Shown: positions 2 through 60,104, counted from the stretch's first letter. The stretch: 62,655 nucleotides of DNA from an uncultured Pseudomonadota bacterium (GCA_902763905.1 CACWUA010000002.1:6075-68729); one strand, 5' to 3'. The notes: generated by a model from the sequence alone, not told the origin. Translations and numbers: made by a program.

Positions 2-1867
2 TTTGATTTATTGAATATACCGGATCCTACTTTTTTGTTTGTGGGCGGTGCAATTTATGTGGCCGGAATTTTCATCAGTTTAAGCGTCGGTATGTATTTT
101 GTTGACGCATCACTGAGACTTGGAATTGCCATTATATTTATGCCGATAAGCATTGCACTTTGGCCGTTTCCGCCGACAAGCAGCAAATTTATGGATAACT
201 TAAATACTATCATTCGCAACGGGTTATTGTTTGCATTGATGTCGGTCGGAATTTCATTTGCACTGTGTCTAATCAACGCCGGTCTTTTTGAAAGCGGAGA
301 TGCTGCTTTCTGGAGTGCGATTGAGCATCAGCAAACCGAGCTCTTAAGTGAGAACTTTTCCTTTTTCAGCACCCATATTTTGGTTGTGGGGTTTAGTTTG
401 ATTTATGGTTTCAGACTTTTAGAATCCAGCGTCAATAATTATTTGAACGCCTTTTTCAGCGACCCGATGTTCGGCAGTCAAAGTCCGATGAATCAAATGG
501 GCACACAAGCTTTCGGCATGGTCTCACAAAATATGGTAAAACCGGCAGCAAGTCTTGCCAAAGACATAGCAATGCACCAAACCGGACGGGCTATCGGCGG
601 TATCGGAACGGCAATCTCGGCAGAGGGACGCGGCAAAATTGCCGGAGGAATAAAAAATGTATACAGCGGTCTCAAAACTTTTGCCAAGAATCCGCGGCAG
701 ACATATAATCGAGCTATGACAATCGCTGGTAAAAAAGCTAATAACGCAATTCAAAGTGTCGGCCAAAAAGCCGAAAATGCAATTTTCGCAGCCGGTGAAG
801 GAGCTAAAAAGTTAGCTGACGGAATTTCGGCAATGGCTCCGATACCTCTGAGCGAGGATATTCGTCAAGACAGACTGCAGGGTAAATTGGAAAACGGTAA
901 ACGTCCGGTATTTGATGAAAATGCAGGTTTCCGCGGCAACAAAGGAATTAACAATAAAATCGACTATCTGACAAACAAATTCGGCAAATTTGCCCGAAAT
1001 AATATAGATGCAGTTACTCCCGCAGTGGGAAATTTCACTGAGAATGTGTTGGCGCATGGCGGCGGCGAAATAAATAATGCGGTGCGAACTGCGGAAGAAG
1101 GCGCAAAACAATGGACCGCAGATAAAATTGCCGACACTATCAATCAGGTAAACGCCATGCGCGGCTCCGAAGATCCGGCAGTTAGCGGCGATCAGATACG
1201 AGCCGGTGTACGCAATGCCGGTATCATTGCCGGTGCTAAATTAAATAAATTAGCGGATAAGGTAATCGACAGCGACATAGTTCAAGGCTTTAAGGAAGGT
1301 GCTGCAACTGCAGACCAAGCTCCAATTACACTTGAACCTTTGGCAGCTGTTTCGGCTCCGTTCAAAGCAGTGCGGCATCCGATTAAAACTTGTCGCAAAC
1401 TGGCTAATCTCAGTGAATCCTTCAACAATTATAAGCAAACATTGAAAGAGAATAGAGAGCTCACTACGCCGACAACCGGCAATAGCGGAGGTAATGCTCA
1501 ACAAACCCTAGAAAACAGCCAACCGAGCCGTACCCGTATCATTATGAAAGCTACAGGACAGATTGTAGCGCGCACTGCAAAAGATGTAGGTTCAAAAACA
1601 GAAAATGTCGGAAAATATGCAGCAAAAGCCGGCAAGGCAACAGCTAAACCAATCGGCAAAGCTGCCGGAAAGACAGCAGATGCTTTGGGTAAAACCTTAC
1701 AAGATTTCGGAGCATGGCTCGGCGACAATTCAAAAAGAGGCGGACAACGGGATAACAGTTCATGGCTGGAAAAATGGAACAGTGTTGTTGCCGATAAAAA
1801 GGCAAGAGAAGAAGAGGCTCAGGAAGAGAGCGATTACTACCGCGAGATGAGTGGCGGAGATAATTAA
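2..1867 (+). CDS. TrbL/VirB6-like type IV secretion inner-membrane protein, 5'-partial (frame open to window edge), with a long Gly/Lys/Ala-rich C-terminal extension
   Basis: Several N-terminal TM helices. The motif YFVDASLRLGIAIIFMPISIALWPFPPTSSKF follows the VirB6 pattern (DA..l...la.gP......F..T......W). It is paralogous to LIDCVLQLCIAAALVPCAIAAFAFKITEKYIKIIW in the next gene. No stop codon lies between position 2 and the TTG at 11. Confidence 0.6.
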   Translation, partial: FDLLNIPDPTFLFVGGAIYVAGIFISLSVGMYFVDASLRLGIAIIFMPISIALWPFPPTSSKFMDNLNTIIRNGLLFALMSVGISFALCLINAGLFESGDAAFWSAIEHQQTELLSENFSFFSTHILVVGFSLIYGFRLLESSVNNYLNAFFSDPMFGSQSPMNQMGTQAFGMVSQNMVKPAASLAKDIAMHQTGRAIGGIGTAISAEGRGKIAGGIKNVYSGLKTFAKNPRQTYNRAMTIAGKKANNAIQSVGQKAENAIFAAGEGAKKLADGISAMAPIPLSEDIRQDRLQGKLENGKRPVFDENAGFRGNKGINNKIDYLTNKFGKFARNNIDAVTPAVGNFTENVLAHGGGEINNAVRTAEEGAKQWTADKIADTINQVNAMRGSEDPAVSGDQIRAGVRNAGIIAGAKLNKLADKVIDSDIVQGFKEGAATADQAPITLEPLAAVSAPFKAVRHPIKTCRKLANLSESFNNYKQTLKENRELTTPTTGNSGGNAQQTLENSQPSRTRIIMKATGQIVARTAKDVGSKTENVGKYAAKAGKATAKPIGKAAGKTADALGKTLQDFGAWLGDNSKRGGQRDNSSWLEKWNSVVADKKAREEEAQEESDYYREMSGGDN

Positions 1868-4800: not shown

Positions 4801-5917
4801 CAATGCTCAAATCATAGGCAATCAGATGGTTATAGATATTACGGCCGTCGACTCCAGAGGCAACATTACACATCATAAGAGTAACGGAATCCAAACAATT
4901 GTCGATAAATTCACATTGCAATACGACAGCAAAGGCAATATTATGAAGGACAAAGACGGCAAATCGTTGTATAAATACAGCAGCTCGCCTCAATTCTCCG
5001 AATATTGGCAAAAACGCAACAGCGGTCATGGTGTGATTGCTACCGATGGCAGCTGGGGTAATCTGGTTGATCGCGACAAGGCTATGGCCGGATTTACACA
5101 ACAGGATTTTGATAAACATCTGGCTAAGATTAAGCTCAAAGAACTGCGGCGAACCAACACCCTGAATAAATTCAATAAAGAATTGAATACTAAAGGTTCG
5201 CAAATCAATGTTTTGAACGGACTGTTGAGCAAAGAAAGTTTGTCGCAGGCAGAAGTGATGGCACTCAATGCCGGATTGATGTCGACAATCGGAATTCCGC
5301 TTGATGAACTGCCGTTCGGAGCAAGTTCAGAAGATTTGCTATCGCCACTAAATGATACGCGTGATAAGAATAATCTGCCGTATACAGATAAACCAAACGA
5401 CGAAGATAAACCGGCAAATCCTCAGGAAGATGAGCGCAAGCGTCAGGAAGAGTCTAAAGCAAAAGCTGATGAAGATGAGCGCAAGCGTCAGGAAGAGTCT
5501 AAAGCAAAAGCTGATGAAGATGAGCGCAAGCGTCAGGAAGAGTCTAAAGCAAAAGCTGATGAAGATAAGCTTAAACGTGAAGCGGAAAAAGAAAAAAATC
5601 AGCGTTTGAAAGAAGAACATGAAGTACATGAAGTTGAAAGAGCACAGTTAGCCAAAGAGCGCGATAAAATCACGCAGCAATTCGCTGAAGTTGAAAAACA
5701 ACTGACTGCCGCCAAAGCTGCTGTCGATGCCGTCGGTCTGACCCCGCAGGAAAAACAACAGGCAGAGGCTGCTTACAATGCCTTATTAAGACAATCAAAT
5801 GCCCTGCGCGAAACTTTGGCGCGCAACAGAAAAGCAAACAATGATGCCATAAATGACTATAACTCTCGCGCCGATAAGCATAACAGTGAATTAGGAGATA
5901 AAAAGAAGTTGCAATAG
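1874..5917 (+). CDS. Giant (1347 aa) fusion protein: signal/TM anchor, M23 (LytM) metallopeptidase domain, Cys-rich linker, VirB6/TrbL-like polytopic domain, long repeat/coiled-coil C-terminal extension
   Basis: M23 Zn-ligand motifs HYGTD (His codon at 2162) and HLHFEL (2477). Multi-TM block around aa 330-620 with the VirB6-like F..T......W motif. C-terminal 3x EDERKRQEESKAKAD repeat. Starts 7 nt after the previous stop. Confidence 0.65.
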   Translation: MKNMRKTRLHIFLFVFLLGIIMPIIPVYAAGGSCNNSCSQISGECIGTRALQGSASAKMDINCLKTNSASSCFNQVPITGGTGNYNSIGKRSATRNHYGTDIGASNTTSAKALAAAEGEVIYARSAGGSGWTIAINHKKKCQGGGGYHTVYRHLYKMFVSAGQHVNANEPIGIVGGSNTVNGKVCHNPAQLKNCASGWYAIHLHFELLDGELCGSCSTQATPSKVMSPYCKDAAVLCGGCPDSQECKCTKNCGGAFGDSSNRQAPGESSGGTAAGEVSSNTNAADVDAYSSKNCSFGEFLDSKSCVFCNLFKIMYNSASDIALNANNRLAAPSKSLVIIGFLIWMAIYFLKQIGTFNATSTGEMLKGLLFQGFRVAVVVIILSNAIPQVMNLTLNPVMQTGFNFVQNLSAFSVCDDSLDYMQNIKGFEDSYSAENADGGLPKNVGKAIICSMKNLEDATGTLMALGDYSICLAHTKHTIKGVIPSLGYLSTGWFLWIVGAILLMAFPWCLIDCVLQLCIAAALVPCAIAAFAFKITEKYIKIIWSFFMNAMFNFVFMALIVYIINSHLKDWIGLSKLSQAELDEHEDIFISGGIIDMLGGQFEGLAWWGIGAIKLLAMCFFCWTFFDEAAAMAKKFADSPGLGGSKGIGRMVGGTMAQMGTNWGLKPAAHYTKKGAQALGRGINSAVGNSFRSGVNHGKGWAMDKLAKLGIAQSQITKDPNTGKTIGYKSKIRLFGRDIERNVTRDENGNWSLEKTTHKRSAIDKAFEVARDENGNIIRDENGIPQYLSRQRVLGKVIGYEAMTATRDKNGNLHYATADGSRSFTMDNDGKILSYKTPYTGTLLGGSHEKTDRHQYGTTKTINDGISKTVQKFDANGNLVSSDTEFKNVSASHLMNTDGTLNANSFNQIKNGAKDPEIAASYMVEEVMKSRGIGLPETFADRKVNLNKDGSFTIVQKNLVGHDKISNKDLYETRVVNAQIIGNQMVIDITAVDSRGNITHHKSNGIQTIVDKFTLQYDSKGNIMKDKDGKSLYKYSSSPQFSEYWQKRNSGHGVIATDGSWGNLVDRDKAMAGFTQQDFDKHLAKIKLKELRRTNTLNKFNKELNTKGSQINVLNGLLSKESLSQAEVMALNAGLMSTIGIPLDELPFGASSEDLLSPLNDTRDKNNLPYTDKPNDEDKPANPQEDERKRQEESKAKADEDERKRQEESKAKADEDERKRQEESKAKADEDKLKREAEKEKNQRLKEEHEVHEVERAQLAKERDKITQQFAEVEKQLTAAKAAVDAVGLTPQEKQQAEAAYNALLRQSNALRETLARNRKANNDAINDYNSRADKHNSELGDKKKLQ
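5426..5568 (+). repeat. Perfect 45-bp x3 in-frame tandem repeat (EDERKRQEESKAKAD) plus a partial fourth unit
   Basis: Units 5426-5470, 5471-5515 and 5516-5560 are identical at nucleotide level. Confidence 0.95.
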
Positions 5918-6055: not shown

Positions 6056-7030
6056 ATGGAAGAAATTATTTTCCCAAACCAAATAAGAATGCATCGCCGT
6101 ATTCATGGTGTACCGATGCAGGAGTTGGCTGATCATTTGGGGGTCAGTTTGTCTGCAATTTCCAAAATAGAGAAAGGCTATCGTCGCTTAAATCAAGAAC
6201 AACTGATTCAAGTTGCTGAGTTGTTGGACTGTTCTTTGCAGGATTTATACGTAAACGAACAAAATTCTCAGCAAGAAGTTGTTCAAGCATGGAAGCGTGA
6301 ACAGGAGCGTCGCAGTAAAATCAATCAGACAGCCGGTTTGAAAACGTTGGGTGCAGGATTACGTCATATTCGCACCAGCAAAGGCCTTACGCTGATTGAA
6401 GTTTCCGAACATGCTGATATGACATTGTCTGTATATCATCGTATAGAAATGGGACAACGAGAAGTTTCAGATAAGGAATACAAGAATATTGCCAAGGCTT
6501 TGTCGATGCCGCTGGAACAATTGAAAGCGGCTATTCAAAAACTTGATGCCGACGGACAGTTGGAAGACATTATTGAACACAACGATACGCGCTACAAAGT
6601 TTTAAACAATGCCCGTTATGCCAATTTGGGTGCGATTACTACTGACAATAATGATGATATTATGGTTCCGCTTTATGGAAACGGCAATGCCGAAGGAAAT
6701 ATTATTATAAGCAGATCCGGTGCATTAAAAGAAATTGCTTGTCCGAGTAATCTGCGTAATAAAAACGATATTTATGCCATAAATCTGTGCACACGCCGTT
6801 TGGGTTCGTTGCTTTCGAATCGCGCTATATTGTTTATTGATCCGTCCGAAGTTGTAAGTGCGGGGGATATTGCGCTCTTCTATATCAACGAAACAGAAAC
6901 CAAATTGCTGAGCATACGAGAAGATGAAAAAGGTCAGCTTTATGGTTTGCGTTGGAACCCTGAAGAACGCGTTAATTTCAGCAACGAAGATTTAACCAAA
7001 ATTCACAAGGTTGCGGTTATTAATCTTTAA
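6056..7030 (+). CDS. Transcriptional regulator with two XRE-type HTH domains and a possible S24/LexA-like C-terminal domain
   Basis: Two HTH_3-like segments (QELADHLGVSLSAISKIEKGYRRLNQEQL and LIEVSEHADMTLSVYHRIEMGQREVSDKEY). The C-terminus RLGSLLSNRAILFIDPSEVVSAGDIALF...TKLLSI resembles the G.SM.P...GD.v.v...vKrl pattern of cI/LexA. Confidence 0.6.
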   Translation: MEEIIFPNQIRMHRRIHGVPMQELADHLGVSLSAISKIEKGYRRLNQEQLIQVAELLDCSLQDLYVNEQNSQQEVVQAWKREQERRSKINQTAGLKTLGAGLRHIRTSKGLTLIEVSEHADMTLSVYHRIEMGQREVSDKEYKNIAKALSMPLEQLKAAIQKLDADGQLEDIIEHNDTRYKVLNNARYANLGAITTDNNDDIMVPLYGNGNAEGNIIISRSGALKEIACPSNLRNKNDIYAINLCTRRLGSLLSNRAILFIDPSEVVSAGDIALFYINETETKLLSIREDEKGQLYGLRWNPEERVNFSNEDLTKIHKVAVINL

Positions 7031-7115
7031 GGCTTTATTTTATGCAATATTAATAAGATATTTACTCTCTCTATTTATAATAGGGAGAGTAAATATATAG
7101 TTTATAGGAAGTAAT

Positions 7116-9080
7116 ATGGCGGAGGCAGCGGAACAGGAAAATCCGACACAAGGAATCAGCTCGGAGTTGGATGAAGCAGCAGAATTCAGAGGCAGTAAAG
7201 AAGATCAGGAAGATTTACTGCTTACGGCTCAGCGTTATCTTAATATTTTCCATCAAATTCATATATTCAAAGCTGCAAAACGCAAAGAGTTTGATCAGCA
7301 ATTGCTTGAAATGCCTGAAAAAATTCGGCGTATATTGGCTATGTTGCCAGGGGGCCGCATTCTTTTGGAGCATATTGCGGAATTAGAGGCCCAACAAGGT
7401 ATTTTTAATTCTTCGCTGAGCAGTTTGATTGAACAAAAGCCAGCTTCGTCCGAGACTCCTGCAACAACTTCGGCAGCATCTGCGGTACAAGTTGTGCCTA
7501 CGGTGGTCAGTGCGCCGGTTGAACTCGGTAATGATTTTACTAAAGCATTAACGGAATCTTTCAGTACTTATTCGCAAAATTTACAAAAACTCAATGCCAA
7601 TATTCAACAAATTGCCGTACAACAGCAAAATTCTCAGATTAGCTCACCAACAGGGGCAAATATCAACATTGCCGACACCCTCAGCACTTTGTTAAAAGAA
7701 AATTCACAACAACAAATGGATGTTCTCAAAGATTTTGGCCAAACACTCTCCAAAACCATATTGGAATCGCAAAAAGAATTTATATCTTCGCTGCTTGATA
7801 AACAAAAAGAGAGTCAACCCCAGCACATTGTAGAAAAAGTCATTGTTCAGAGTGCAGCGCCGGCTGCTGAAGTGGTGAGTGCCGCACCAACCTTTGCTCA
7901 GCCGGTTGTTTCACAAACGGAAACGAAAGAAATCAACCCGACCTCGATTCAGGAAATAATCACAAAGCAGAATATTTCTCAATTTTCCAATGTCCGTGAG
8001 GCTTCGGCTAAAATTGATAATGTAAAACCGACTGAAAATAGCAAAAATGTTACCAAAGAAAATAATATTGCTCAAAAAATCTTACCGGAGATAAAATCAG
8101 AACAGAAGAATATCGAGCAGGAAGCTGCGTCTGTTCAAGTTTCTGATACGATCGAAATTGCCCTACCTAAAATCGAATCGAGCGTAAAAGAGACCGTGCC
8201 GACGAATAGCGGCAAAAATGACAAGAAGAAAGCCGAAAGTCAATACAAGAATAAAGAAAATAAAGAAAATAAAGAAAATAAGACAATCGATACAGTCTTG
8301 TCTCATCAGGAAAACAGTGTGCCTCATTTGCCTAGTGAAAAGAATAGAAAACAAGAAAAATCTTTACCGAAAAAAGATACTAAACAATCGCAGCAAAACG
8401 ATAAAAAAGGTGTTACCGAGGAAAAGAATAAGTCCTCTGACAGAAGTGTCGATATTGAAAATGAGCCTATTGATGAAGTGGTTGATATAGATATTGATGC
8501 CTTATTTGATGACGCATTTGCACCTAAGGACAAGAGCAAAAAAGACAATAAACCGGCAGATGCGCTCAGTGATGCGTTTGGTGTTGTCGAGCAGCCTAAG
8601 GACAAGAGCAAAAATAAAAAAGCAGAGTCGGAACCTGTGGTGTTACGTAATACCGGCTATGATTCGGCAATGCTTAAAATTAAAGAAGCACTTAATTCAA
8701 CCGATTCCGTGTCTCTTGATGACTTAAATATTACTCCGGTATCGTTGTCATCAGGGAAAGAAGAAAAAACAAACGATACTTTCAATGAATCTCCTGATTT
8801 GGAAAAAGTGTTTTCAGATTTTGCCGATGATAATGATAACAACACCCATTTGCAAGATATTGCCGATGATGACGAATGGGAATATGTTGATGAAAATGGG
8901 AATCCGATTGCACCGTCGGATAACGATGAATGGGAATACGTTGATGAAAACGGGAATCCGATTACACCGTCGGATAACGATGAATGGGAGTACGTTGATG
9001 AAAACGGAAATCCGATTACACCGTCAGATAACGATGAATGGGAATACGTTGATGAAAACGGAAATGTAATATCGTCTTAA
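7116..9080 (+). CDS. Acidic, low-complexity 654-aa protein with a conserved helical N-domain and four C-terminal DNDEWEYVDENGNPI(T/A)PS repeats; no signal peptide or TM
   Basis: Long ORF; repeats seen directly; also an NKENKENKENK microrepeat and duplicated PKDKSK segments. Confidence 0.7.
   Translation: MAEAAEQENPTQGISSELDEAAEFRGSKEDQEDLLLTAQRYLNIFHQIHIFKAAKRKEFDQQLLEMPEKIRRILAMLPGGRILLEHIAELEAQQGIFNSSLSSLIEQKPASSETPATTSAASAVQVVPTVVSAPVELGNDFTKALTESFSTYSQNLQKLNANIQQIAVQQQNSQISSPTGANINIADTLSTLLKENSQQQMDVLKDFGQTLSKTILESQKEFISSLLDKQKESQPQHIVEKVIVQSAAPAAEVVSAAPTFAQPVVSQTETKEINPTSIQEIITKQNISQFSNVREASAKIDNVKPTENSKNVTKENNIAQKILPEIKSEQKNIEQEAASVQVSDTIEIALPKIESSVKETVPTNSGKNDKKKAESQYKNKENKENKENKTIDTVLSHQENSVPHLPSEKNRKQEKSLPKKDTKQSQQNDKKGVTEEKNKSSDRSVDIENEPIDEVVDIDIDALFDDAFAPKDKSKKDNKPADALSDAFGVVEQPKDKSKNKKAESEPVVLRNTGYDSAMLKIKEALNSTDSVSLDDLNITPVSLSSGKEEKTNDTFNESPDLEKVFSDFADDNDNNTHLQDIADDDEWEYVDENGNPIAPSDNDEWEYVDENGNPITPSDNDEWEYVDENGNPITPSDNDEWEYVDENGNVISS
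8868..9070 (+). repeat. 54-bp x about 3.8 in-frame tandem repeat encoding D(D/N)DEWEYVDENGNPIxPS
   Basis: TGG codons at 8877 and 8931 fix the 54-nt period; the units are near-identical. Confidence 0.9.
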
Positions 9081-9160
9081 ACATATTAGAGGAAAGTACT
9101 CAAAAATATTTACAAATTTTATATTATTGGGTACAATACTTCGGAGAAAGGAACAAAAGT

Positions 9161-9655
9161 ATGACAGAGATTACAAATAATGCTGTTTCAAAGGAATCCT
9201 TATGGTATGTGGATAATTATATAGTACTGATTGACTATTATGATCGAACAATATCGCGAATTGCGGCACGTTGTGTGCGTATGGGTAATATTGCAATGGA
9301 AGAATATCCGCATTATTCATATATTCTCGATGTTTTGGAAGAAATATGCGATACCGGCAATTATATTTTGGAGCATGACGAATTACATCCTTATGTTGAG
9401 AAAAAGATTGCCGGAGGAATTGAAGCTCTGCGCAGAAATCTGTCGTTATACCAACAGGAACTCATAAATAATCAAACGCCGGAAATGTTGCGTACCGATC
9501 CGAACGAAGCAAAAAAATTAAATGAAGTTATGAGTAATTTCGATAAGGCTACGGATCCTACGGTTGGAGCCGGTATGAATATTGATGATTTAATGAATAA
9601 ACTAATGGCGGAAAATGCCATTGAAACCGGTGAAAATTCCGGTAATAAGCAATAA
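9161..9655 (+). CDS. Hypothetical acidic cytoplasmic protein (164 aa)
   Basis: ORF in an operon-like array; no recognisable motif. Confidence 0.5.
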   Translation: MTEITNNAVSKESLWYVDNYIVLIDYYDRTISRIAARCVRMGNIAMEEYPHYSYILDVLEEICDTGNYILEHDELHPYVEKKIAGGIEALRRNLSLYQQELINNQTPEMLRTDPNEAKKLNEVMSNFDKATDPTVGAGMNIDDLMNKLMAENAIETGENSGNKQ

Positions 9656-9671
9656 TGATAGGATACAGACC

Positions 9672-10985
9672 ATGAAGAAGACGCTCATTTCAGGAATATA
9701 TGTTTTTTCAGCGTTCTTAATAGTAACCATATCCGGTTGCATGAGTAGCAGTGAGGTTGTTCAAATGACACCGGAAGCTCAGGCTAAACAGCTTAAGTAT
9801 GAGTATGAGCACAACATGCAGTTGATGGAAGCGGAACCTGTACATAAAGATCCACAAGATCCGTTTATGATCCGAACAACCGAAGGCGCGAACGCTTTAG
9901 ACTTGGAAACACCTTTGCGTTGTAATGTAAACTGGGAAACGCAGCAAATGATTTTGACTTTGCCTTATGTTCGCTCGGCATTTAAGTTGGAAAGAAACGG
10001 GCAAAATGATGCGTTGCCGCGATTTGATGTTACCGGTTTTTCGTTTGATATGATGCCGGCAGAGCAGGCATTGGTGCGCCTGACAAAAGAGGCCGGAATC
10101 CGAGTTTCTTCCGCTGACGGGCCATATACCAGCATTTCCGCACAAGATTTGAAAGGTGAATTTTCCGAGGTTATAAAAATGATTGCCGAATCGGCGGATA
10201 TCTATTACACCTATAATGCAAAAGATAAAATTTTGACCTTAAGCCGCCGTGTTAATATGACACTTTATACTCCGCATTCTCGTCCGATTATATTGGGACT
10301 GATGGATGTTATTCGCGGAGCCGGCATTACTAATATTACAACCAACTGGGCTGATTATTCTATAACGTTTGATGCTGATGTTGAAACGCAAAAAAAGATG
10401 ATGGAGCTGATTAAGATTTTTGAAAACAGTCCAACTTTGGTTGCCTATGATGTCAGTGTGTTCCGCTTATATCCAAATGATCCGACCAGAGATATAGAAT
10501 GGAAAGAGATGCTGAATGCTTTTGATTTCGGTGCTATTACCACTGCGCAAACCGGCGTTATCGGACGCGTTTTAACCACAACCAATGATATATCCGTTGA
10601 AAAACTGCGCCAATTTTTAGGCAGTCAGGCGCGAATTGAAACCGTATCAGAGGGTAAGTTTGTAGTTCCGAATTTATGGCTGGCTCGTTTTGATATCGGC
10701 AAATGCAGTCAACCGGGGGCGGATCCGTATGGAATGTCCGTATTAGCTAAAGCATCGGTTGAGAAAAACAACGAAATATTTACGGATGTTACGGTTGAAG
10801 TTACCGATGGTCAAGTCACTAAGTTCAATATCCGCAATAAACTGGGCGAAAACTTTTTGATTATCGGTATGCCGAATGAATTGTTTGGGGTTCATTCACC
10901 TAAGTCAGAAACAATTATATTTATGGTTCCGCGTATCATCAGAACCTTAAAGACCAGTGAAACAATTAAAAATAAGATAAAATAA
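9672..10985 (+). CDS. Outer-membrane lipoprotein with secretin-like architecture (degenerate secretin C-domain)
   Basis: ATG at 9672 follows AGGA. Signal peptide with lipobox (FLIVTISG|C). The C-terminal ...GENFLIIGMPNELFGVHSPKSETIIFMVPRIIRT resembles the secretin C-terminal consensus (viGG..iP.lG.LF....eL.i.vtP.ii). Confidence 0.45.
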   Translation: MKKTLISGIYVFSAFLIVTISGCMSSSEVVQMTPEAQAKQLKYEYEHNMQLMEAEPVHKDPQDPFMIRTTEGANALDLETPLRCNVNWETQQMILTLPYVRSAFKLERNGQNDALPRFDVTGFSFDMMPAEQALVRLTKEAGIRVSSADGPYTSISAQDLKGEFSEVIKMIAESADIYYTYNAKDKILTLSRRVNMTLYTPHSRPIILGLMDVIRGAGITNITTNWADYSITFDADVETQKKMMELIKIFENSPTLVAYDVSVFRLYPNDPTRDIEWKEMLNAFDFGAITTAQTGVIGRVLTTTNDISVEKLRQFLGSQARIETVSEGKFVVPNLWLARFDIGKCSQPGADPYGMSVLAKASVEKNNEIFTDVTVEVTDGQVTKFNIRNKLGENFLIIGMPNELFGVHSPKSETIIFMVPRIIRTLKTSETIKNKIK

Positions 10986-10996
10986 GGGAGGATGTT

Positions 10997-11614
10997 ATGG
11001 AAGAAAATCAGAGCATGCCTAAAGTTCGTAAACTGAGAAAAATAAAAAGATCCAAACCACAAGAACAACCGCTGTCTTTTGGAACCCCGACAAAAGTTAA
11101 TTATTCTCAACCGGATTCATTTTTGGAAAAGGCATATAATCAGGAGTCCGAGGAAAACACCGTATTTGACAATAATGGCGATGCGGAGAACATCCATTTT
11201 ATTACTGAAGAAGAATTAATACCGCAAACTCAAGATTCAATATCCGTACTATTGCGCAATAAAACCGTGTTTATGTTGCTGATAATTGCAGGACTTATCG
11301 GGGCTATAACGGGATATCTGATGGCACCTTCAGCCAACGCCCCTGCTGCACGCGGGCTTGATGGTGTTGTTATCAACTCGGATATACCGGCAGGTCGCAG
11401 CCGTTGCGGTATTGCCGAGCCGCATCAGGGATGCGTTTTGTATATCATGAACCCGAAAAATCAGGAAGTCCAAGGCAAGTATTTCTATAATACGGCTGCG
11501 AAATGGACCAATCGCGAACGTTATCTAATTGAGACCAGCAATATGCACTACAGTTCTACACGGATTAAGCCGGGATATATTGCACAAATAAATATTCCGC
11601 CGCTTACATATTAA
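10997..11614 (+). CDS. Bitopic membrane protein (cytoplasmic N-tail, one TM, about 95-aa periplasmic domain with 2 Cys)
   Basis: GGGAGG RBS 5 nt upstream. TM segment VFMLLIIAGLIGAITGYLMAP. Starts 11 nt after the preceding gene. Confidence 0.6.
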   Translation: MEENQSMPKVRKLRKIKRSKPQEQPLSFGTPTKVNYSQPDSFLEKAYNQESEENTVFDNNGDAENIHFITEEELIPQTQDSISVLLRNKTVFMLLIIAGLIGAITGYLMAPSANAPAARGLDGVVINSDIPAGRSRCGIAEPHQGCVLYIMNPKNQEVQGKYFYNTAAKWTNRERYLIETSNMHYSSTRIKPGYIAQINIPPLTY

Positions 11615-11676
11615 ATTTAATGATAAATCATTCAACCCCCATTAAAATGGGGGTAGTCTGTATGGCATTAATGCAG

Positions 11677-11705
11677 AAAGCCGATAATTATATCGGCTTT
11701 TTATT
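11677..11705. terminator. Bidirectional Rho-independent terminator between the convergent + operon and atpG
   Basis: Stem AAAGCCGATA (11677-11686) pairs with TATCGGCTTT (11691-11700), flanked by T-rich sequence. It overlaps the atpG stop codon. Confidence 0.6.
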
Positions 11706-12590
11706 GTTGTTTTTTTCGTTCATGGCATTGGCTCCGGAAACCACATCAATTAACTCCCCTGTTATTTCCTCCTGCCTTTGCTGCTGAAATTCCAAATTCA
11801 TTGTTGCTAAATTTTCATCAATATTTTTTTCAGCGTTCTGCATATTAGTCATACGTATAAAATGTTCTGCCGCCAATGAAGAATTGATTTGCTTTGCCAG
11901 TGCTATCATCATTATTTCACCGACAAGTGCCGCAAACATTTTACCTTTATCAACCGGCATCATCGGAATATTGTTGGTATCCCACTTTTTATTTTTAAGT
12001 TTTAGCAAACTATCGGCATCAACCGGCAAAATTTTTTTCATTTCAACTGCCGTATTACCGGTATTACCGCGACGATGATAACATATATAGATATCGGTTA
12101 TACGCTGACTGCGCATCGCCTGTTCTATACGCATGATTATTGTTTCTGCCAATGAAATTACAGCCTTTACCGAATTAGAGGTGGCATAACCGGCTATCAG
12201 GCGTAAATCGGCTTGTTCTGCCAATTGTGATAATCTCTTACCGATAGTGATAAAACAGGTGCTGTCCGCAGCAATTTTACGCGTTTTGATAAATGACTGC
12301 ACATATTCGATTATTTCTCGATTGAAACGCCCTACCATACCGTTATCGGAGCCAATAATAATAGTCAGATAACGAGAATTACGAGAATTGGCTGAGATAA
12401 ATTGAGGTATCCCGTCGTGCATTGCTAAAATGTGAATTGCATCGCGCAAATTGCGTTGATACTTTTCCAATACAATGTTGGCTTGTTCATATTGCAATAT
12501 GCTGACAGATGACAATGTTTTCATATTGCCGACAATTTCCCGCAATTCCTGAGTAGTTTTTATTTTTCGCTGTAACGCTTCTGCCGGCAT
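11688..12590 (-). CDS. atpG: N-type ATPase gamma subunit
   Basis: Last gene of the atpDCQRBEFAG order; gamma-like length and termini. Confidence 0.8.
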   Translation of the reverse strand: MPAEALQRKIKTTQELREIVGNMKTLSSVSILQYEQANIVLEKYQRNLRDAIHILAMHDGIPQFISANSRNSRYLTIIIGSDNGMVGRFNREIIEYVQSFIKTRKIAADSTCFITIGKRLSQLAEQADLRLIAGYATSNSVKAVISLAETIIMRIEQAMRSQRITDIYICYHRRGNTGNTAVEMKKILPVDADSLLKLKNKKWDTNNIPMMPVDKGKMFAALVGEIMMIALAKQINSSLAAEHFIRMTNMQNAEKNIDENLATMNLEFQQQRQEEITGELIDVVSGANAMNEKNNNKKPI

Positions 12591-12595
12591 CTGCT

Positions 12596-14098
12596 CTATT
12601 CCTCACCGCTCATAATTTGAGAAAAAACTTGTATCATCTTTTCCATATCAGTATCGGATATCTTCTGCCGCATTTCAATGGAATGCGCAATTTTTTTAAA
12701 TCTGGTATTAAACACGCGTAATATGGTTTCTTGAGCACGGATGCTATCCGCAGTATCCATACCGTCAAACAAACCGACGTTAGCTGCTGCAAATATTGCT
12801 ATTTGTTCGGCAGCGCTCAACGGTGAAAAACGCCGTTGCTGCAAAACCGATCGAACTGCTTGACCGCGAGTTATGCGCTGCTGCGTCTCTTTATCAAGCT
12901 GTGTACCGAATTTGGTAAAAGATTCCAACTCTTCAAATTGCGCATAAAAGAGCTTAAGAGGTCCCACCACCGACTTATAGGCAGGAAGCTGAGCGTCTCC
13001 TCCCACGCGGGAAACCGATCGGCCGGTATCGATTGCCGGCATCATACCTTTTTGAAACATTTGCGCCGAAAGATATATCTGACCATCGGTAATTGAAATA
13101 ATGTTTGTCGGAATATAAGCCGAAATATTACCGGCTTCGGTGGAAACAATCGGCAAAGCGGTTAAGGAGCCACCGCCGACTTCTGCACGCAAATGAGTTG
13201 CTCGCTCCAATAAGCGCGAGTGAATATAGAAAATATCACCCGGAAAAGCTTCGCGCCCAGGTGGCCGACGCAACAATAATGACATTTGCCGATAGGCGCG
13301 GGCGTGGCTGGTTAAATCATCATACACCACCAAAACATCATATCCCTGCTGCATAAAATATTCACCTATGGTAGTAGCTGCGTATGGTGCAATAAATTGC
13401 ATTCCGGCTTCATCATCAGCGGCTGCCGATACCACTATGGTTTTATCCATAACATCATATTTTTGCAAATCGGCGATAATAGTTGCCACAGCGGCATTAC
13501 GCTGCCCGATAGCACAATAAATGCTGATTACTCCGCTGTTTTTCTGATTGATTATCGTATCAAGTGCGATTGCCGTTTTACCGGTTTGACGATCACCCAA
13601 TATCAACTCTCGCTGACCGCGTCCGATAGGCGTAAAAGCATCTACAGCTTTGATTCCGGTTTGCAAAGGTGTATCAACAGGTGCGCGATCCATAATCGGA
13701 ACCGCTTCTACTTCTATTGGGCGACGTTCATCGTAACTATACGGACCTTTGCCGTCAAGCGGCTCTCCTAAAGGATTTATTACCCGTCCCAATAAATTTT
13801 CGGTTACCGGAACATCAGAAACACGACCGGTACGGGCAACTTTGTCGCCGGCTTTAATTTTGGAAGGATTATCCAAAAACACAACACCTACAGTATCACG
13901 ATTCAGAGTTTGCACCATACCCTTAACATTGTGCGAAAACTGCAATAATTCATCCATTTGAGCATTTTTAAGTCCGCTGACGAGCGCCGTTCCTGAAGAA
14001 ACGGACTGCACCTCGCTTATTTCTTCCTTCTTGAGCGTTACGTCAGTTTTATCAATGCTTTGCTTTATGGCTTGCAATGTTTGTTTTGCTTCAATCAT
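12596..14098 (-). CDS. atpA: N-type ATPase alpha subunit
   Basis: Walker A GDRQTGKT and typical alpha-subunit sequence throughout. Confidence 0.95.
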   Translation of the reverse strand: MIEAKQTLQAIKQSIDKTDVTLKKEEISEVQSVSSGTALVSGLKNAQMDELLQFSHNVKGMVQTLNRDTVGVVFLDNPSKIKAGDKVARTGRVSDVPVTENLLGRVINPLGEPLDGKGPYSYDERRPIEVEAVPIMDRAPVDTPLQTGIKAVDAFTPIGRGQRELILGDRQTGKTAIALDTIINQKNSGVISIYCAIGQRNAAVATIIADLQKYDVMDKTIVVSAAADDEAGMQFIAPYAATTIGEYFMQQGYDVLVVYDDLTSHARAYRQMSLLLRRPPGREAFPGDIFYIHSRLLERATHLRAEVGGGSLTALPIVSTEAGNISAYIPTNIISITDGQIYLSAQMFQKGMMPAIDTGRSVSRVGGDAQLPAYKSVVGPLKLFYAQFEELESFTKFGTQLDKETQQRITRGQAVRSVLQQRRFSPLSAAEQIAIFAAANVGLFDGMDTADSIRAQETILRVFNTRFKKIAHSIEMRQKISDTDMEKMIQVFSQIMSGEE

Positions 14099-14873
14099 CT
14101 TTTCCTCGATTTAAGAATTGGGTTGCTTCCTTGTGCAAATTTTGGCCGAACTCGTACAAATATTCGCTTAAATTCCATGAAATAAGCTGTTCGTCCGCAG
14201 CAATACAGAGACCGCCGATAAGTTCGGAATTAACAGTAAAATCAAACGTTACAGACCGAGACAAACCCCAGACAGTCCGTAAAAAATCTTCAAGTTTTAC
14301 TTTATTTGCAACACTGAGAATCGATGCTGATTGAACTTCTATTTGCTTTTTATTCTGAAATGCTTCAGCATATTCGGCTTGCTTTTGCGGAGATAGAGAT
14401 GCTATTTGCTTTATCAATATTTCAACAGCAGCATCATTAATATCAATATTGGCAATCTGTCGCAGTGCTTTTTGCGCAAAATGATTGAATTGCACAGAAA
14501 CCGCTTTTTGCATAACAGAATCAAATCCGTTCTGTTCCGCTTCCATTCGTCGACGCCACTGTTTTTGCTTATTGATATACTCTGTATGTGCGCGCTCAGT
14601 CAATTCAGCCGCAAGCTCATCTGCTTCCTGATGTGCCTGTTGCAAGATTTCTTGTTTTTGCGCCTCTAATTTCTGCATCTGCTTTTCACATGCTTTTACT
14701 GTTTGCTGTGCTTTTTTTTGCGCTTCTTCAGCAGCCGATAATTCATCTGCCACCGCTTTTTGTCTTGCTTCAACCGCTTTTAGTACCGGCAAATACAAAA
14801 ACTTTCGCAGTAAAAAAAGCAAAATCAGCAAATTTATGACTTGTGCCACCAGTGTAAAAAGATCAATCCCCAT
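14091..14873 (-). CDS. atpF: N-type ATPase b subunit with a delta/OSCP-like C-terminal domain (b-delta fusion)
   Basis: N-terminal TM plus a long charged helix. The C-terminal ...NSELIGGLCIAADEQLISWNLSEYL matches the delta-subunit eLIGG...gd..iD.S motif. No separate atpH is present. Confidence 0.75.
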   Translation of the reverse strand: MGIDLFTLVAQVINLLILLFLLRKFLYLPVLKAVEARQKAVADELSAAEEAQKKAQQTVKACEKQMQKLEAQKQEILQQAHQEADELAAELTERAHTEYINKQKQWRRRMEAEQNGFDSVMQKAVSVQFNHFAQKALRQIANIDINDAAVEILIKQIASLSPQKQAEYAEAFQNKKQIEVQSASILSVANKVKLEDFLRTVWGLSRSVTFDFTVNSELIGGLCIAADEQLISWNLSEYLYEFGQNLHKEATQFLNRGKDD

Positions 14874-14892
14874 CGGTCCTCACGTAATTATT

Positions 14893-15162
14893 TTATTGAT
14901 TGACGGCATAATTCCAAAACGGATTGGCGTAAAGCGTCAAAAACGCTATCAAAAGCGCATATAACGCTGTTGTTTCCAACATTGCCAAGGTTACAAACAT
15001 TGTTGAACGAATCCGACCTGCCTCATCAGGTTGCTGAGCCATAGCTGTCAGAGCAGCAGCCGCAGCCTGCCCCTCACCAAGTGCCGAACCGATACTGCCG
15101 ATGCCCATACATAAACAGGCACCTAAAACCGAAACCGCTCCGATTATTGCATAAGAATCCAT
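14893..15162 (-). CDS. atpE: N-type ATPase c subunit with a full Na+-ligand set
   Basis: ATG at 15162 follows AAGGAG. An 89-aa hairpin protein. GEGQ and LETTALY match the I. tartaricus ligands Q32, E65, S/T66, T67 and Y70. Confidence 0.9.
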   Translation of the reverse strand: MDSYAIIGAVSVLGACLCMGIGSIGSALGEGQAAAAALTAMAQQPDEAGRIRSTMFVTLAMLETTALYALLIAFLTLYANPFWNYAVNQ

Positions 15163-15178
15163 TTTTTTCTCCTTTACA

Positions 15179-15919
15179 TTAAGTTGATAATTGTTCGTTC
15201 TCCGCTCTGACACTTGAAGTATAAACAAGTGCCAATAGCGCAAAAATATAAGCTTGGATTGAACCGGTCAGCAGTCCCAGTGTTTGCATGGTAAGCGGTG
15301 CCACAAACGGGATAAATGCGCTTAATATTCCGGCAAACATCACTCCGCTCAGCATATTACCAAACAAACGTAATCCCATGGCAAACACCGAAAATATCTC
15401 ACTAAATATATTCATCGGCAGCAACAAAGGGACCGGTTCGATAAATTTTCTCAGATATCCTTTGACACCGGCATTCTTAATAGAAAAATACGGAATAGCC
15501 AAGAATACAACCAATGCCAAAGCCATAGTTGTACTCAATGATGCTGTGGGCGGTCTGAACCATGGAATGAATGTAAGTAAATTAGCGGTGACAATAAAGC
15601 AAAACAAACCTAGAGCCATTGCAAAATATTTTTGACTGGCAGAACCGCTGGTTTCTTTTGCTTCTTTTTGCATCCAAATAACCAATGTTTCCAATATAAT
15701 TTGCAGTTTGGAAATACTTCTGCCGTTGTCGATTTTTCGCGTTGTCAACCAAGAAACAATTGTTATCAGAGCCATAACAATCCATGTATTAAAAATTGTA
15801 ACGTTGATGCTAAAATCACCGCACGCGATGAGCTTTATCGAATCAAAATTCTCCAATCCGATTGTTTTATCACTCCACGGCAAATCAAGCCAATGCGAAA
15901 AATCCGTTCTGCAAATCAT
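15179..15919 (-). CDS. atpB: N-type ATPase a subunit
   Basis: Polytopic protein; LRLFGNMLSG contains the conserved stator Arg. Confidence 0.9.
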   Translation of the reverse strand: MICRTDFSHWLDLPWSDKTIGLENFDSIKLIACGDFSINVTIFNTWIVMALITIVSWLTTRKIDNGRSISKLQIILETLVIWMQKEAKETSGSASQKYFAMALGLFCFIVTANLLTFIPWFRPPTASLSTTMALALVVFLAIPYFSIKNAGVKGYLRKFIEPVPLLLPMNIFSEIFSVFAMGLRLFGNMLSGVMFAGILSAFIPFVAPLTMQTLGLLTGSIQAYIFALLALVYTSSVRAENEQLST

Positions 15920-16257
15920 TTTTTATCCGTCAAATCCTTTGCCTCTTCAGTTATGTAGCGGCTTTTTTCTACCCAAATTATCCCGACTTTGGTCAGGAAA
16001 AATGCCAGAATATACAGTAAAATAACGGCAATGTTGCGGTGTCCGATTAAAATTAAAACCCCGAAAAACAACGTTATACGACATAGTGCGACCACTGCAT
16101 ATAACCTTACTTTGTGCTCCAATTTGCCATAATGATTTATACTCCAGCGCAAACTGTAAAAATATATCAGCCCAACTACAACACCGCTCAACAATGCTGC
16201 AATCAATCTCCATTCCTCAGCATTTTGCCACATCAGTTCCAAATATCCGCTATTCAT
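15916..16257 (-). CDS. atpR: N-ATPase accessory membrane protein AtpR
   Basis: About 113 aa with 3 TM helices and an Arg in a TM helix (SLRWSI). Its position between atpQ and atpB is diagnostic of N-ATPase operons. Confidence 0.7.
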   Translation of the reverse strand: MNSGYLELMWQNAEEWRLIAALLSGVVVGLIYFYSLRWSINHYGKLEHKVRLYAVVALCRITLFFGVLILIGHRNIAVILLYILAFFLTKVGIIWVEKSRYITEEAKDLTDKK

Positions 16258-16591
16258 TTTTTCCTCCTTTTTTCAGCGCGTCCATTTTTGCATCTAACTC
16301 GGCAATTTTACGATTTTCTATTGCAACCCACATATAAGCATTAAATATTCCCCATACAAATCCTACAAACAAAAATGACAACCGCCAAGAAAATTTTTGC
16401 GGAGCCGTCTCATCCAAATATCCACCGAACCATATTCCCAACAATACCGGTATAATAATCACCCCACCGAGAGAAGCTATCATTCCGAATCCGGAGCGCC
16501 AACGTCTGTACGGCCGTTGTTTAAGTAATTCTGCCTTATAAACCAGTTCATCACGCACTTTGGCATTTTGTACTTTTTCAAATTCTACCAT
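16250..16591 (-). CDS. atpQ: N-ATPase accessory membrane protein AtpQ (AtpI-like)
   Basis: Small 2-TM protein directly after atpC. I chose the internal Met (MVEFEK...) because the 16699 start would overlap atpC by about 120 nt. Confidence 0.65.
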   Translation of the reverse strand: MVEFEKVQNAKVRDELVYKAELLKQRPYRRWRSGFGMIASLGGVIIIPVLLGIWFGGYLDETAPQKFSWRLSFLFVGFVWGIFNAYMWVAIENRKIAELDAKMDALKKGGKNE

Positions 16592-16981
16592 TAAACTCGC
16601 CTTTACTGAGTTGGCCAAAGCCGCGAATAATTCCCAATTCCAGACGTGCCATGGCACTGTTGAACTCTTTTCTGCGCTCATCGGTTTGCTTAAAATCACG
16701 GTTGATAACCTCGGTCAGCTCATCGAGAGTGTCTCCCGTAACTGCATTTTGCACCGTTATTGTTACGACCGCACCTTTTTTAACAACAATACCGCGATGG
16801 CACGCCACATATTTTTCCTCATTTTGTTCAGTAGTATAAGTAACGATGTTTTCACCCATTGCCGCCGCAAAATCAACATGCTTAGGCAACAATGTGTAAT
16901 AGCCGTTCAAAGTTTCTACGGTAATTTTTTTTATTTTGCTTTTCAATACTTCTCCCAACGGAGTAAACACCATCAATTTCA

Positions 16982-16982
<1 letters not shown>
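16578..16982 (-). CDS. atpC: N-type ATPase epsilon subunit
   Basis: Epsilon-like 134-aa protein; ATGA overlap with the atpD stop at 16982. Confidence 0.85.
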
Positions 16983-18442
<1,460 letters not shown>

Positions 18443-45000: not shown

Positions 45001-45292
45001 CATCAATTTTTGCTTGTTGCGGCTCCGAAGCATACGGACGGCGAGCAGCCAACATTTCCTTGTAACCCTCATAAATATCGGCGATGTTAACTCTGTCGTC
45101 ATAATTAAAATTATCGCGAACAATATTTCGAATACCGGTATAATATTCATCGGTGAGCCTATCCATGCGTGCGGCGATAATATCCTGACGTTTAATCAAA
45201 TCGTCGACTTCATCTCCTTTGGCTTTGGCTATTTCTTCGCCGTAGTAATTATATACCTGTGTCAAAATTGTCGGCGGTACAACTTTCATCAT
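42086..45292 (-). CDS. Large (1068 aa) hypothetical protein with no signal peptide, a central cluster of Gly/Ala-rich hydrophobic hairpins and a Pro/Thr repeat
   Basis: Long ORF. Hydrophobic block around aa 345-510. Contains TPPVQTPPTDK repeats. Confidence 0.7.
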   Translation of the reverse strand: MMKVVPPTILTQVYNYYGEEIAKAKGDEVDDLIKRQDIIAARMDRLTDEYYTGIRNIVRDNFNYDDRVNIADIYEGYKEMLAARRPYASEPQQAKIDAVDKKLKMDIADYDTDRGIADITKDNINQVRKNHQELTKRFENIGLDDETNKFLSNIRFYDEKGQVVPQFINPQTNQESLTWQQGMYVKPNSQLQTMIDFARNNTIIENMSADVKSISDEDLQAAFQDRLKIQAFAWATAEENVHNALIEPDRFTDEKYLNEFKARMADPERPLHMSIRGFNAATQLSINDTMGIIGRLASEDHIDNPKDALLKRMYAPIEKYDARKGTRFDEKGEYSVNWFKTAVWTAGASLAQKLLTYGATLGCAHAASALGLTALAPAVAVTKALPMVAGVTSMAMAGVGMYMNWKNYKKEAKANNQKPKLREFLTKQPYATTNIASTLGFAAGACLITGNVPVAAALGAGCLAVAGYGTYKEARQHGLTKRKALLQSLKKVSAIAVGGGLGSYIGSMIGVTPAWQEKGPDTPGHVEQGPDSHNYSNIEHQHATNRLDDPRFSEFLNRFHVAPDLQDPSDPNVVSSDAVTNLRSAITQAIGDDRQFYTDIANNPQNPDYIPNTDVLSYKFEQLAYLAPKPDTPINTDYAVNVLHVPVGTTVGEYLSMKMPDGSDMNYIDALKEVVSTGKSSNPDGLASMLTKIDNVIGMQIDDNVNDAGKITLFGTGPEAHPVQSFNENADAGYDIGKHFTMVAGKVGEVINHGGEKLFGLGYWEPVKGAFSGMKKRIGAIADKIIGVKTSQTPPPVQTPPTDKTPPVQTPPTDKTPPVDKTPPKVIIKVPTPEERKYLDEEYWMVHGYNPAEKKVRGEDGKMKTLTVNPMTFDAGYKAYYENVEKERVAAGGKPMLEFLQERRRKIDKIINDNVSNFNGSYAQRSNADILDPIGYKQVLQKQAELKNAGKSMTKEEIDKAILWPTSQELKDEYKTHRPTSKLIKIIRDAFFRKDNEVDVTNPNQRTTTVIDGKTVEANKKVFSFEKFIDSAEDALVRTTSETSRDENKASKRRTLDEMGNMKKLNNR
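42821..42920 (-). repeat. 33-bp tandem repeat encoding (TPPVQTPPTDK)n
   Basis: GGCGGAGTTTTATCCGTAGGCGGAGTCTGCACC occurs twice, with partial flanking copies. Confidence 0.85.
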
Positions 45293-59996: not shown

Positions 59997-60104
59997 CGCC
60001 CCCCGCCTGACCTTGTTTTCCGTTTTTTTCTTTATGGGCTATTGAATTGAGCTTGTTTTTTTGATAGTATAGGTTATTAAAAAAAAGAAAAGCTGAAAAC
60101 GAAT

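Follow-up and report, generated by a model that had tools for sequence, protein, structure and literature searches.

A shortened lipoprotein secretin in a conserved gene block beside VirB6-like genes of uncultured gut Alphaproteobacteria

Type II and type III secretion systems (T2SS and T3SS), type IV and Tad pili and filamentous phages all use secretins as portals through the outer membrane, and a secretin is encoded with the machine that it serves. What, then, is the role of a secretin-like lipoprotein with none of these machines encoded around it? This question is raised by a stretch of 62,655 nucleotides (nt) from an uncultured Pseudomonadota bacterium (GCA_902763905.1, CACWUA010000002.1:6075-68729; the whole stretch is hereafter referred to as the window), in which a regulator gene is followed on the same strand by genes for an acidic repeat-rich protein, a small acidic protein of 164 residues (p164), the lipoprotein and a bitopic inner-membrane protein. 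Positions refer to the whole window, and open reading frames (ORFs), gaps and composition were read from its DNA. Here we report that the lipoprotein represents a widespread new secretin subfamily, unusual in its reduced domain and without precedent in its conserved gene context. We propose, at roughly even confidence, that it builds a self-piloting secretin ring in an undescribed envelope-spanning module, probably working with VirB6-like proteins encoded directly upstream. No description of this gene cluster was found in the literature searched.

The membership of the lipoprotein in the secretin superfamily is close to certain, on the combined evidence of sequence searches, profile alignment and structure prediction. 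A full HMMER (phmmer) search covered 1.8 billion cluster representatives. The lipoprotein family has about 60 full-length members that are 25–52% identical; beyond it, at E values of 1e-10 to 1e-4, lie proteins that carry PF00263, are themselves lipoproteins and score best, though below the cut-off, on the MshL and PilN pilus-secretin models. Alignment of the family with these PF00263 lipoprotein secretins by hhalign gave a probability of 100% (E 4e-41, 339 columns), beginning in the N0/STN-like region and reaching the C-terminal PRxIR motif. An AlphaFold2 monomer model built with 39 family sequences reached a mean predicted local distance difference test (pLDDT) score of 87.8. In a Foldseek search of the PDB with this model, the best 40 matches were all secretins, with BfpB of the type IVb bundle-forming pilus first (E 1.4e-9), followed by PilQ, InvG and GspD; f1 pIV was also among the matches, and the N-domain crystal structures (N0–N1) of EscC, GspD and XcpQ were matched at E 2.5e-3 to 7e-3. 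Residues 94–252 of the model form beta-alpha-beta units, and the aligned relatives carry STN, revealing an N0/STN-like domain and a ring-building domain. A sequence-only reading of the window had seen a degenerate secretin gate in the C-terminus of this protein; the three lines of evidence agree with that view, and none assigned the protein to a non-secretin family.

The N-terminus of the protein fits a lipoprotein. We prefer the ATG at 9672 as the start, as AGGA lies 8 nt upstream and homologues begin at the same place; public gene calls use a longer, 454-residue start, and the reading frame offers another at 9615. From 9672 the protein starts with MKKTLISGIYVFSAFLIVTISGC, a signal peptide with a lipobox; the N-terminus reads MKKTLISGIYVFSAFLIVTISG↓C and the lipobox TISG↓C, and the cysteine is conserved in lipobox context in most family members.

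About 60 residues of the secretin domain found in the relatives are absent here. The hhalign alignment with the PF00263 relatives revealed three deletions of 19, 21 and 12 + 8 residues, and the span between two shared anchor residues measures 141–166 residues (median 155) in the window family and 195–242 residues (median 216) in the relatives, with no overlap between the two ranges. Deletion 1 takes out the segment corresponding in the alignment to 'VGQxVPxxTG...' of f1 pIV, ExeD and BfpB, which in secretin structures is the GATE1 hairpin; deletions 2 and 3 presumably fall in gate hairpins as well. Complete GATE1/GATE2 inner-barrel hairpins were not found in the lipoprotein. An invariant cysteine, C345, occupies the spot of deletion 1 and a second, C84, lies in a conserved N-terminal segment; a C84–C345 disulfide is plausible. 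The outer strands and the C-terminal PRxIR of the domain are strongly conserved. Because the N-domains, the outer strands and this C-terminal motif are kept, the protein likely still forms a ring.

The gene block around this secretin is widespread and its order is stable. A pattern scan of one genome per species (species representatives) confirmed 330 loci, and the best 80 of these were compared (individual loci are given L numbers below). The closest genome is a goat-rumen metagenome-assembled genome (MAG) named 'Alphaproteobacteria bacterium', with 98% identity, and the relatives are all MAGs from rumen or gut that carry the labels Alphaproteobacteria, Azospirillum sp. or Candidatus Scatocola; they presumably belong to an uncultured gut order that often goes by the name RF32. 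In every compared locus with enough flanking sequence, the order is VirB6-like gene, M23–VirB6-like gene, regulator, acidic protein, p164, secretin and bitopic protein. Unlike this seven-gene block, the downstream ATPase operon is in many cases replaced. Identity to the window proteins is 56–98% for the secretin, 60–97% for p164, 53–97% for the regulator (across 64 loci) and 32–93% for the bitopic protein, and falls to 25–30% for the acidic and VirB6-like proteins. Among more distant lineages, L091, with a secretin only about 30–35% identical, keeps the same order, comprising VirB6-like proteins, a 329-residue regulator, the acidic protein, a 500-residue protein with a C-terminal p164 domain, the secretin and a 171-residue bitopic protein; L090 has the same order from the regulator onward. 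In L093 we found the regulator, a 217-residue protein with the acidic N-domain, a 406-residue p164-domain protein and the secretin. The sequence-only reading had staked its proposal on the co-conservation of the four genes in related genomes; they are indeed kept together, and the regulator and the VirB6-like genes are kept with them.

Several observations accompany this distribution. Upstream of the regulator in L093 (1762–4206), the place of the VirB6-like genes is taken by genes for two secreted proteins of 484 and 329 residues that are rich in Cys and in Ser/Lys. The genome MGYG-HGUT-03859 holds two different p164–secretin–bitopic copies on separate contigs (L051 and L081; secretins 65% and 63% identical to that of the window), reflecting either a true duplication or a mixed bin. 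A plasmid search with the secretin family found one distant relative, in Erythrobacter: a 377-residue protein with a signal peptide and no lipobox on the Erythrobacter aureus megaplasmid NZ_CP031358 (L094, 330424–335481). Its gene follows that of a 1304-residue protein with five N-terminal transmembrane (TM) segments and an extremely acidic, coiled-coil-rich remainder, and an M23 peptidase gene lies 9 kb upstream. A plasmid search with a VirB6-like protein gave no match.

The features of the locus are collected in Table 1. The five plus-strand ORFs from the regulator to the bitopic protein are separated by 85, 80, 16 and 11 nt. The genes, gaps, lipobox, single TM helix, acidic isoelectric points (pI) and terminal hairpin described by the sequence-only reading were all found in place. 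Its bidirectional terminator stood in part: the hairpin was shown to be terminator-like for the plus strand only. Its statement that no product belongs to a recognised family also holds, as p164, the lipoprotein and the bitopic protein have no family in Pfam, NCBIfam or PHROGs and the acidic protein gave weak, sub-threshold repeat matches (SSSPR-51) and nothing stronger in the same collections.

Table 1. Coordinates of the secretin gene block and neighbouring features in the window
Feature	Position	Strand	Remarks
VirB6/TrbL-like polytopic membrane protein	11..1867	+	Cut by the window start; 700 aa on the full contig (L088)
M23 peptidase + VirB6-like polytopic region + repeat-rich hydrophilic tail, 1311 aa	1874..5917	+	Peptidase_M23 E 6e-15
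Repressor-type regulator	6056..7030	+	Two XRE-type helix-turn-helix (HTH) domains and a CI/LexA-like C-terminal domain
18-bp-stem hairpin	7058..7096	+	Terminator-like site; RNA fold -23.3 kcal/mol, z -5.8
Acidic repeat-rich protein, 654 aa	7116..9080	+	pI 4.5; no signal peptide
Sigma-70-like promoter match	9109..9137	+	TTTACA-17-TACAAT, 10/12 positions; consensus match only
p164, small acidic cytoplasmic protein, 164 aa	9161..9655	+	pI 4.6; no TM segment
Lipoprotein secretin homologue	9672..10985	+	Lipobox, N0/STN-like domain, ring-building N-domain, shortened secretin domain
Bitopic inner-membrane protein, 205 aa	10997..11614	+	Basic cytoplasmic motif, linker, one TM helix, periplasmic domain
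Terminator-like hairpin	11675-11702	+	Ends the operon; overlaps the stop codon of convergent atpG

The p164 core domain is the constant genetic partner of the secretin. This domain (residues 15–70) is more than 95% conserved among 83 homologues, and a p164 homologue stands directly upstream of the secretin gene in six of the six lineages examined (L083, L084, L090, L091, L092 and L093). The protein's composition and the lack of a TM segment bear out its earlier description as a small acidic cytoplasmic protein. Its sequence matches in the PDB are weak, namely a tape measure protein (6e-5) and the T3SS chaperone CesA (0.04–0.4). Both identities were set aside, and the matches were treated as reflecting helical composition. 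The part that resembles CesA, a T3SS filament chaperone, comprises residues 78–129 (E 0.04–0.4); this likeness could hint at a chaperone role or stem from mere helical composition.

The acidic protein, also as described earlier, is repeat-rich and has neither a TM segment nor a signal peptide. Only an N-terminal domain of about 60 residues (approximately residues 33–95) is conserved; the remainder is hypervariable, and the homologues range from 217 to 1010 residues. This N-domain is recognisable in L093 and, via L093, in L091. Near the C-terminal end, a 54-nt tandem repeat (3.6 copies, 8874–9065) encodes DNDEWEYVDENGNPI. Repeat numbers differ between near-identical strains (window 7116–9080; L085 10975–12703; L087 10975–12754), and two public assemblies call only the 3' end of the gene. 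The gene is probably either fast-evolving or hard to assemble.

The bitopic gene lies downstream of the secretin gene in 84 loci, including L090 and L091. Thirty homologues of its product share an RKLRKIKR cytoplasmic motif, a variable (disordered) linker, one TM helix and an 85-residue periplasmic domain, which has two invariant cysteines and the C-terminal end IKPGYIAQINIPP; in the window protein the single hydrophobic helix spans approximately residues 82–113. AlphaFold2 predicts a beta-alpha-alpha-beta fold for the periplasmic domain (pLDDT 85–94). The sequence-only reading had likened this protein to GspC, PilP and VirB10. The likeness survives for the topology, with its one TM helix, and fails for the fold: the predicted periplasmic domain is not the beta-sandwich of GspC-HR or PilP, and no match to GspC, PilP or VirB10 was obtained, so this identity was rejected. 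Foldseek with the periplasmic domain returned nothing significant (best E 0.44); the weak, non-significant matches include several LysM proteins (E 1–6; Volvox LysM TMt 0.65). A PDB search with the bitopic profile found no match.

This fold touches on a reading in which the lipoprotein is not a channel at all. FimV/HubP, TsaP and GspA/ExeA are secretin-associated peptidoglycan-binding proteins, and in FimV/HubP a LysM domain occurs together with a TM helix and an acidic repeat region. The window likewise encodes an inner-membrane-anchored partner beside the secretin, with a small alpha/beta domain of LysM-like topology, and an acidic repeat protein in the same set. The secretin-derived protein could be a periplasmic or outer-membrane ring or scaffold that conducts nothing, such as an envelope tether or a wall-associated landmark, together with the bitopic and acidic proteins, somewhat as with FimV/HubP and TsaP. 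The loss of about 60 beta-domain residues, including the GATE1 stretch and a conserved loop before the last strand, would fit this reading, as would the faint LysM-like matches. We nevertheless consider it unlikely. The conserved outer strands and PRxIR suggest that the barrel is kept, and, unlike in FimV/HubP, TsaP and GspA/ExeA, no peptidoglycan-binding family is recognised by sequence, with Pfam LysM (PF01476) matching 0 of the 30 bitopic homologues and the other peptidoglycan-binding families likewise unmatched; the structural likeness is not significant.

Directly upstream of the regulator lies an array of VirB6-like genes, most of it visible only on the contig that contains the window (L088), which extends 15 kb further upstream. 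The order there is 296-residue protein, 829-residue VirB6-like protein, 74-residue two-TM protein, 827-residue protein, 482-residue TrbL-like protein, 343-residue protein, 700-residue protein and the 1311-residue M23–VirB6 fusion, the last two being those that lie in the window. The 827-residue protein, just outside the window, passes the Pfam TrbL/VirB6 (PF04610) cut-off with 27.6 versus 25.9 bits. The 700-residue protein stays below it (TrbL E 0.002, 18.2 bits versus 25.9) and is paralogous to the TrbL-positive 827-residue protein (E 8.5e-11). The fusion protein, which has about six TM segments and a 45-nt tandem repeat at 5426–5570, is paralogous to the 829- and 827-residue proteins (E 2e-34 and 1e-24). 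Many homologues of the 482-residue paralogue carry PF04610, and a relative of the 343-residue protein carries a SleB-type hydrolase domain. The members of the array are paralogous to one another and include at least five tandem VirB6/TrbL-like paralogues, and the TrbL-positive protein together with the paralogy of the window copies upholds the earlier claim that the cluster directly follows VirB6-like genes. The 829-residue protein was also considered as a divergent VirB4; this was rejected, as it is another VirB6-like paralogue. Between two of the paralogues, the 74-residue ORF with two TM segments (L088 3824–4048) has no family match; in size and topology it would suit a VirB2- or VirB3-like subunit. 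Two independent assemblies, L088 (1–275) and L089 (1–573), each end upstream of the 296-residue gene, at a distance of a few hundred bases, which suggests a repeat there, either a ribosomal RNA operon or an insertion sequence element.

Multicopy RvhB6 is a hallmark of the Rickettsiales rvh type IV secretion system (T4SS; PMC11077975). The window array resembles rvh in having tandem VirB6/TrbL-like paralogues with long hydrophilic, repeat-rich extensions on an alphaproteobacterial chromosome. It differs in that no VirB3 or VirB4 gene precedes it in the upstream contig, M23 and SleB-like domains are fused to its proteins, and a secretin operon follows. The rvh systems use VirB7/9/10 and are not known to use a secretin. 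Elsewhere among T4SSs, DotD, TraK and the Xanthomonas VirB7 are outer-membrane proteins with a secretin-type N0 domain, and their resemblance to secretins is confined to that N0-like part. They are precedents for secretin-derived domains in the outer-membrane complexes of T4SSs, and a chain of the Legionella Dot/Icm outer-membrane complex (7mud_Ad) was a weak Foldseek match to the lipoprotein model (E 6e-3); the window protein, unlike them, keeps the whole secretin architecture including a beta-domain. In a more specific arrangement, the secretin, and not VirB7/9/10, would be the outer-membrane channel of a VirB6-based, T4SS-derived hybrid secretion system that exports the acidic protein, with p164 as a cytoplasmic chaperone or docking factor. 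We regard this arrangement as doubtful.

Neither pilin, prepilin motif, platform gene nor traffic ATPase was found within about 10 kb of the secretin gene in about 90 related loci, and the description of this secretin as an orphan is therefore apt. In a motif scan of all loci, the only ATPases found were ABC and FtsK. No VirB4-type ATPase was detected in the 15 kb upstream to the contig end, in the window or in a Walker-motif scan of all loci, and no VirB7, B8, B9, B10 or B11 was seen in the loci compared, as opposed to whole genomes. The secretin might serve as the outer-membrane channel for a T2SS, a type IV pilus or a Tad pilus whose genes lie elsewhere in the genome, with the adjacency to the VirB6-like genes an inherited order without function. 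The nearest relatives are MshL/PilN-like pilus secretins and BfpB is the top structural match, L093 has no adjacent VirB6-like genes, and our searches covered loci and not whole genomes. Pilus and T2SS secretins, however, are normally encoded within their own operons, and no pilin, prepilin motif or traffic ATPase lies within about 10 kb of this one in the roughly 90 loci, which come from many species. Moreover, the p164, acidic and regulator neighbours are kept down to about 30% secretin identity while downstream synteny decays, and the loss of gate hairpins is unlike functional pilus secretins. A machine elsewhere thus seems to us improbable.

The alternative that we favour, a joint apparatus of the secretin and the VirB6-like proteins, is the best single explanation because the linkage to the VirB6-like array is conserved, and it is supported by the lack of a pilus or T2SS gene nearby. 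Several findings weigh against it. L093 has neither adjacent VirB6-like genes nor a bitopic gene, so the VirB6 link is frequent and not universal. No ATPase or VirB4/8/9/10/11 was seen at the loci, which leaves the apparatus without an energy source and without a link to a real T4SS. The lipoprotein itself matched nothing in Pfam or NCBIfam even at E <= 1 (including PF00263, TIGR02519 and TIGR02520), nothing in PHROGs and no PDB sequence, either as a single sequence or as a family profile. The Foldseek TM-scores are low (0.13–0.23), as can be expected when a compact monomer model is set against chains from assembled rings, and they mean that the fit is local. A protein whose gate hairpins are gone may conduct nothing, and the proposal that the acidic protein is cargo is purely conjectural.

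For the joint apparatus, with its putative partners, direction of transport and cargo, we envisage the following arrangement. After Sec export and lipidation, the lipoprotein would be sorted to the outer membrane and would assemble into a ring without a separate pilotin, like the type IVb lipoprotein secretins BfpB, TcpC, PilN and MshL. With these type IVb/MSHA secretins (BfpB, TcpC, R64 PilN and MshL) it shares the lipobox, the N0/STN-like and ring-building domains and the PRxIR end. Unlike them, it matches none of TIGR02519, TIGR02520 and PF00263, lacks about 60 residues of the secretin domain, the GATE1 stretch among them, and has no pilin, ATPase, platform or prepilin peptidase gene nearby, its partners being p164, the acidic protein and a novel bitopic protein. 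HxcQ of Pseudomonas aeruginosa is likewise a lipidated, self-piloting 'liposecretin' with no separate pilotin, and the locus of the window lipoprotein also has no pilotin-like gene; HxcQ, in contrast, sits in a complete T2SS operon and retains the full-length secretin domain with its gate. The N0-like and ring-building domains of the window lipoprotein would project into the periplasm, and the beta-domain, with most gate hairpins missing, would probably form a pore that is narrower, ungated or closed by something else. The small, disulfide-containing periplasmic domain of the bitopic protein may link the ring with the inner membrane or with the cell wall. The secretin is encoded in one operon with this protein, the cytoplasmic p164-domain protein and the hypervariable acidic repeat protein, the last being a candidate cargo or surface product. 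The VirB6/TrbL-like proteins fused to hydrolases (M23 and SleB-like), whose genes in most lineages directly precede the module, most likely supply the inner-membrane and wall-crossing part. The whole would form one envelope-spanning apparatus, related to but distinct from the canonical T4SS.

The regulator encoded just upstream, a CI/LexA-like dual-HTH repressor, would probably control the operon. It contains two HTH_3 stretches (Pfam, E 2e-21), and phrog_4, 'transcriptional repressor', a CI-type phage family, spans residues 95–319, covering the second HTH and the C-terminal 140 residues. Neither Pfam Peptidase_S24 nor a catalytic Ser/Lys was detected in it, and self-cleavage is therefore not implied. 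Its N-terminus, MEEIIFPNQIRM, is retained in distant lineages. The hairpin that follows the regulator gene shows compensatory changes in its arms among relatives, and most simply it is the regulator's terminator; in more distant relatives a canonical terminator replaces it, followed by a conserved TTAACYTGAAATTTAC box. In the window (7040–7110), a conserved TTAAYAAGAAATTTAC box overlaps the left arm of the hairpin. The TTAACYTGAAATTTAC box and the palindrome could also form the operator. The best promoter-like match in the region falls in the 80-nt gap before p164.

A CI/LexA-like repressor adjoining VirB6-like genes and cell-wall hydrolases, which are typical of conjugative elements, invites the view that the block is a mobile-element remnant under a CI-like repressor: either an integrative conjugative element or a filamentous prophage whose secretin is of the pIV type. 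The f1 pIV match and the distant relative on the Erythrobacter megaplasmid point the same way. We hold this origin to be highly improbable, however, given that the block is chromosomal and lies in the same context among core genes, that about 330 loci occur in species representatives with secretin, p164 and regulator highly conserved, and that the loci yielded no gene for an integrase, a relaxase, a Zot-like ATPase, a coat protein or replication and the window no tRNA gene. The rest of the window carries chromosomal core genes: uvrC, recN, bamD, lpxC, RNase P RNA, der, bamB, dnaK, valS and glgP.

Other parts of the window carry features of their own. A complete alternative (N-type) F1F0 ATPase operon lies on the minus strand at 11688–18433, convergent with the secretin operon; TIGR03323 is matched by its gamma subunit, and relatives also have AtpR and ATPase_gene1. 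The ATPase operon adjoins the secretin operon in close relatives and not in many others. Two neighbouring large ORFs on the minus strand (42086–45292 and 45320–46480; 1068 and 386 residues) have no Pfam match at E <= 0.001. At the end of the window (60001–62655), the GC content rises from about 0.42–0.48 to 0.63 across recJ (60105–62114; RecJ E 2e-89), which could reflect horizontal acquisition or a chimeric contig end.

Collectively, these findings bring to light a shortened secretin that current annotation pipelines have missed across uncultured gut and rumen Alphaproteobacteria, and they offer four new protein families for databases: the short lipoprotein secretin, the p164 domain, the acidic N-domain and the bitopic partner. 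If the genetic link between the secretin and the VirB6-like genes is functional, it would represent a new way to build an envelope-spanning system and would bear on the debate over the evolution of T4SS outer-membrane complexes.

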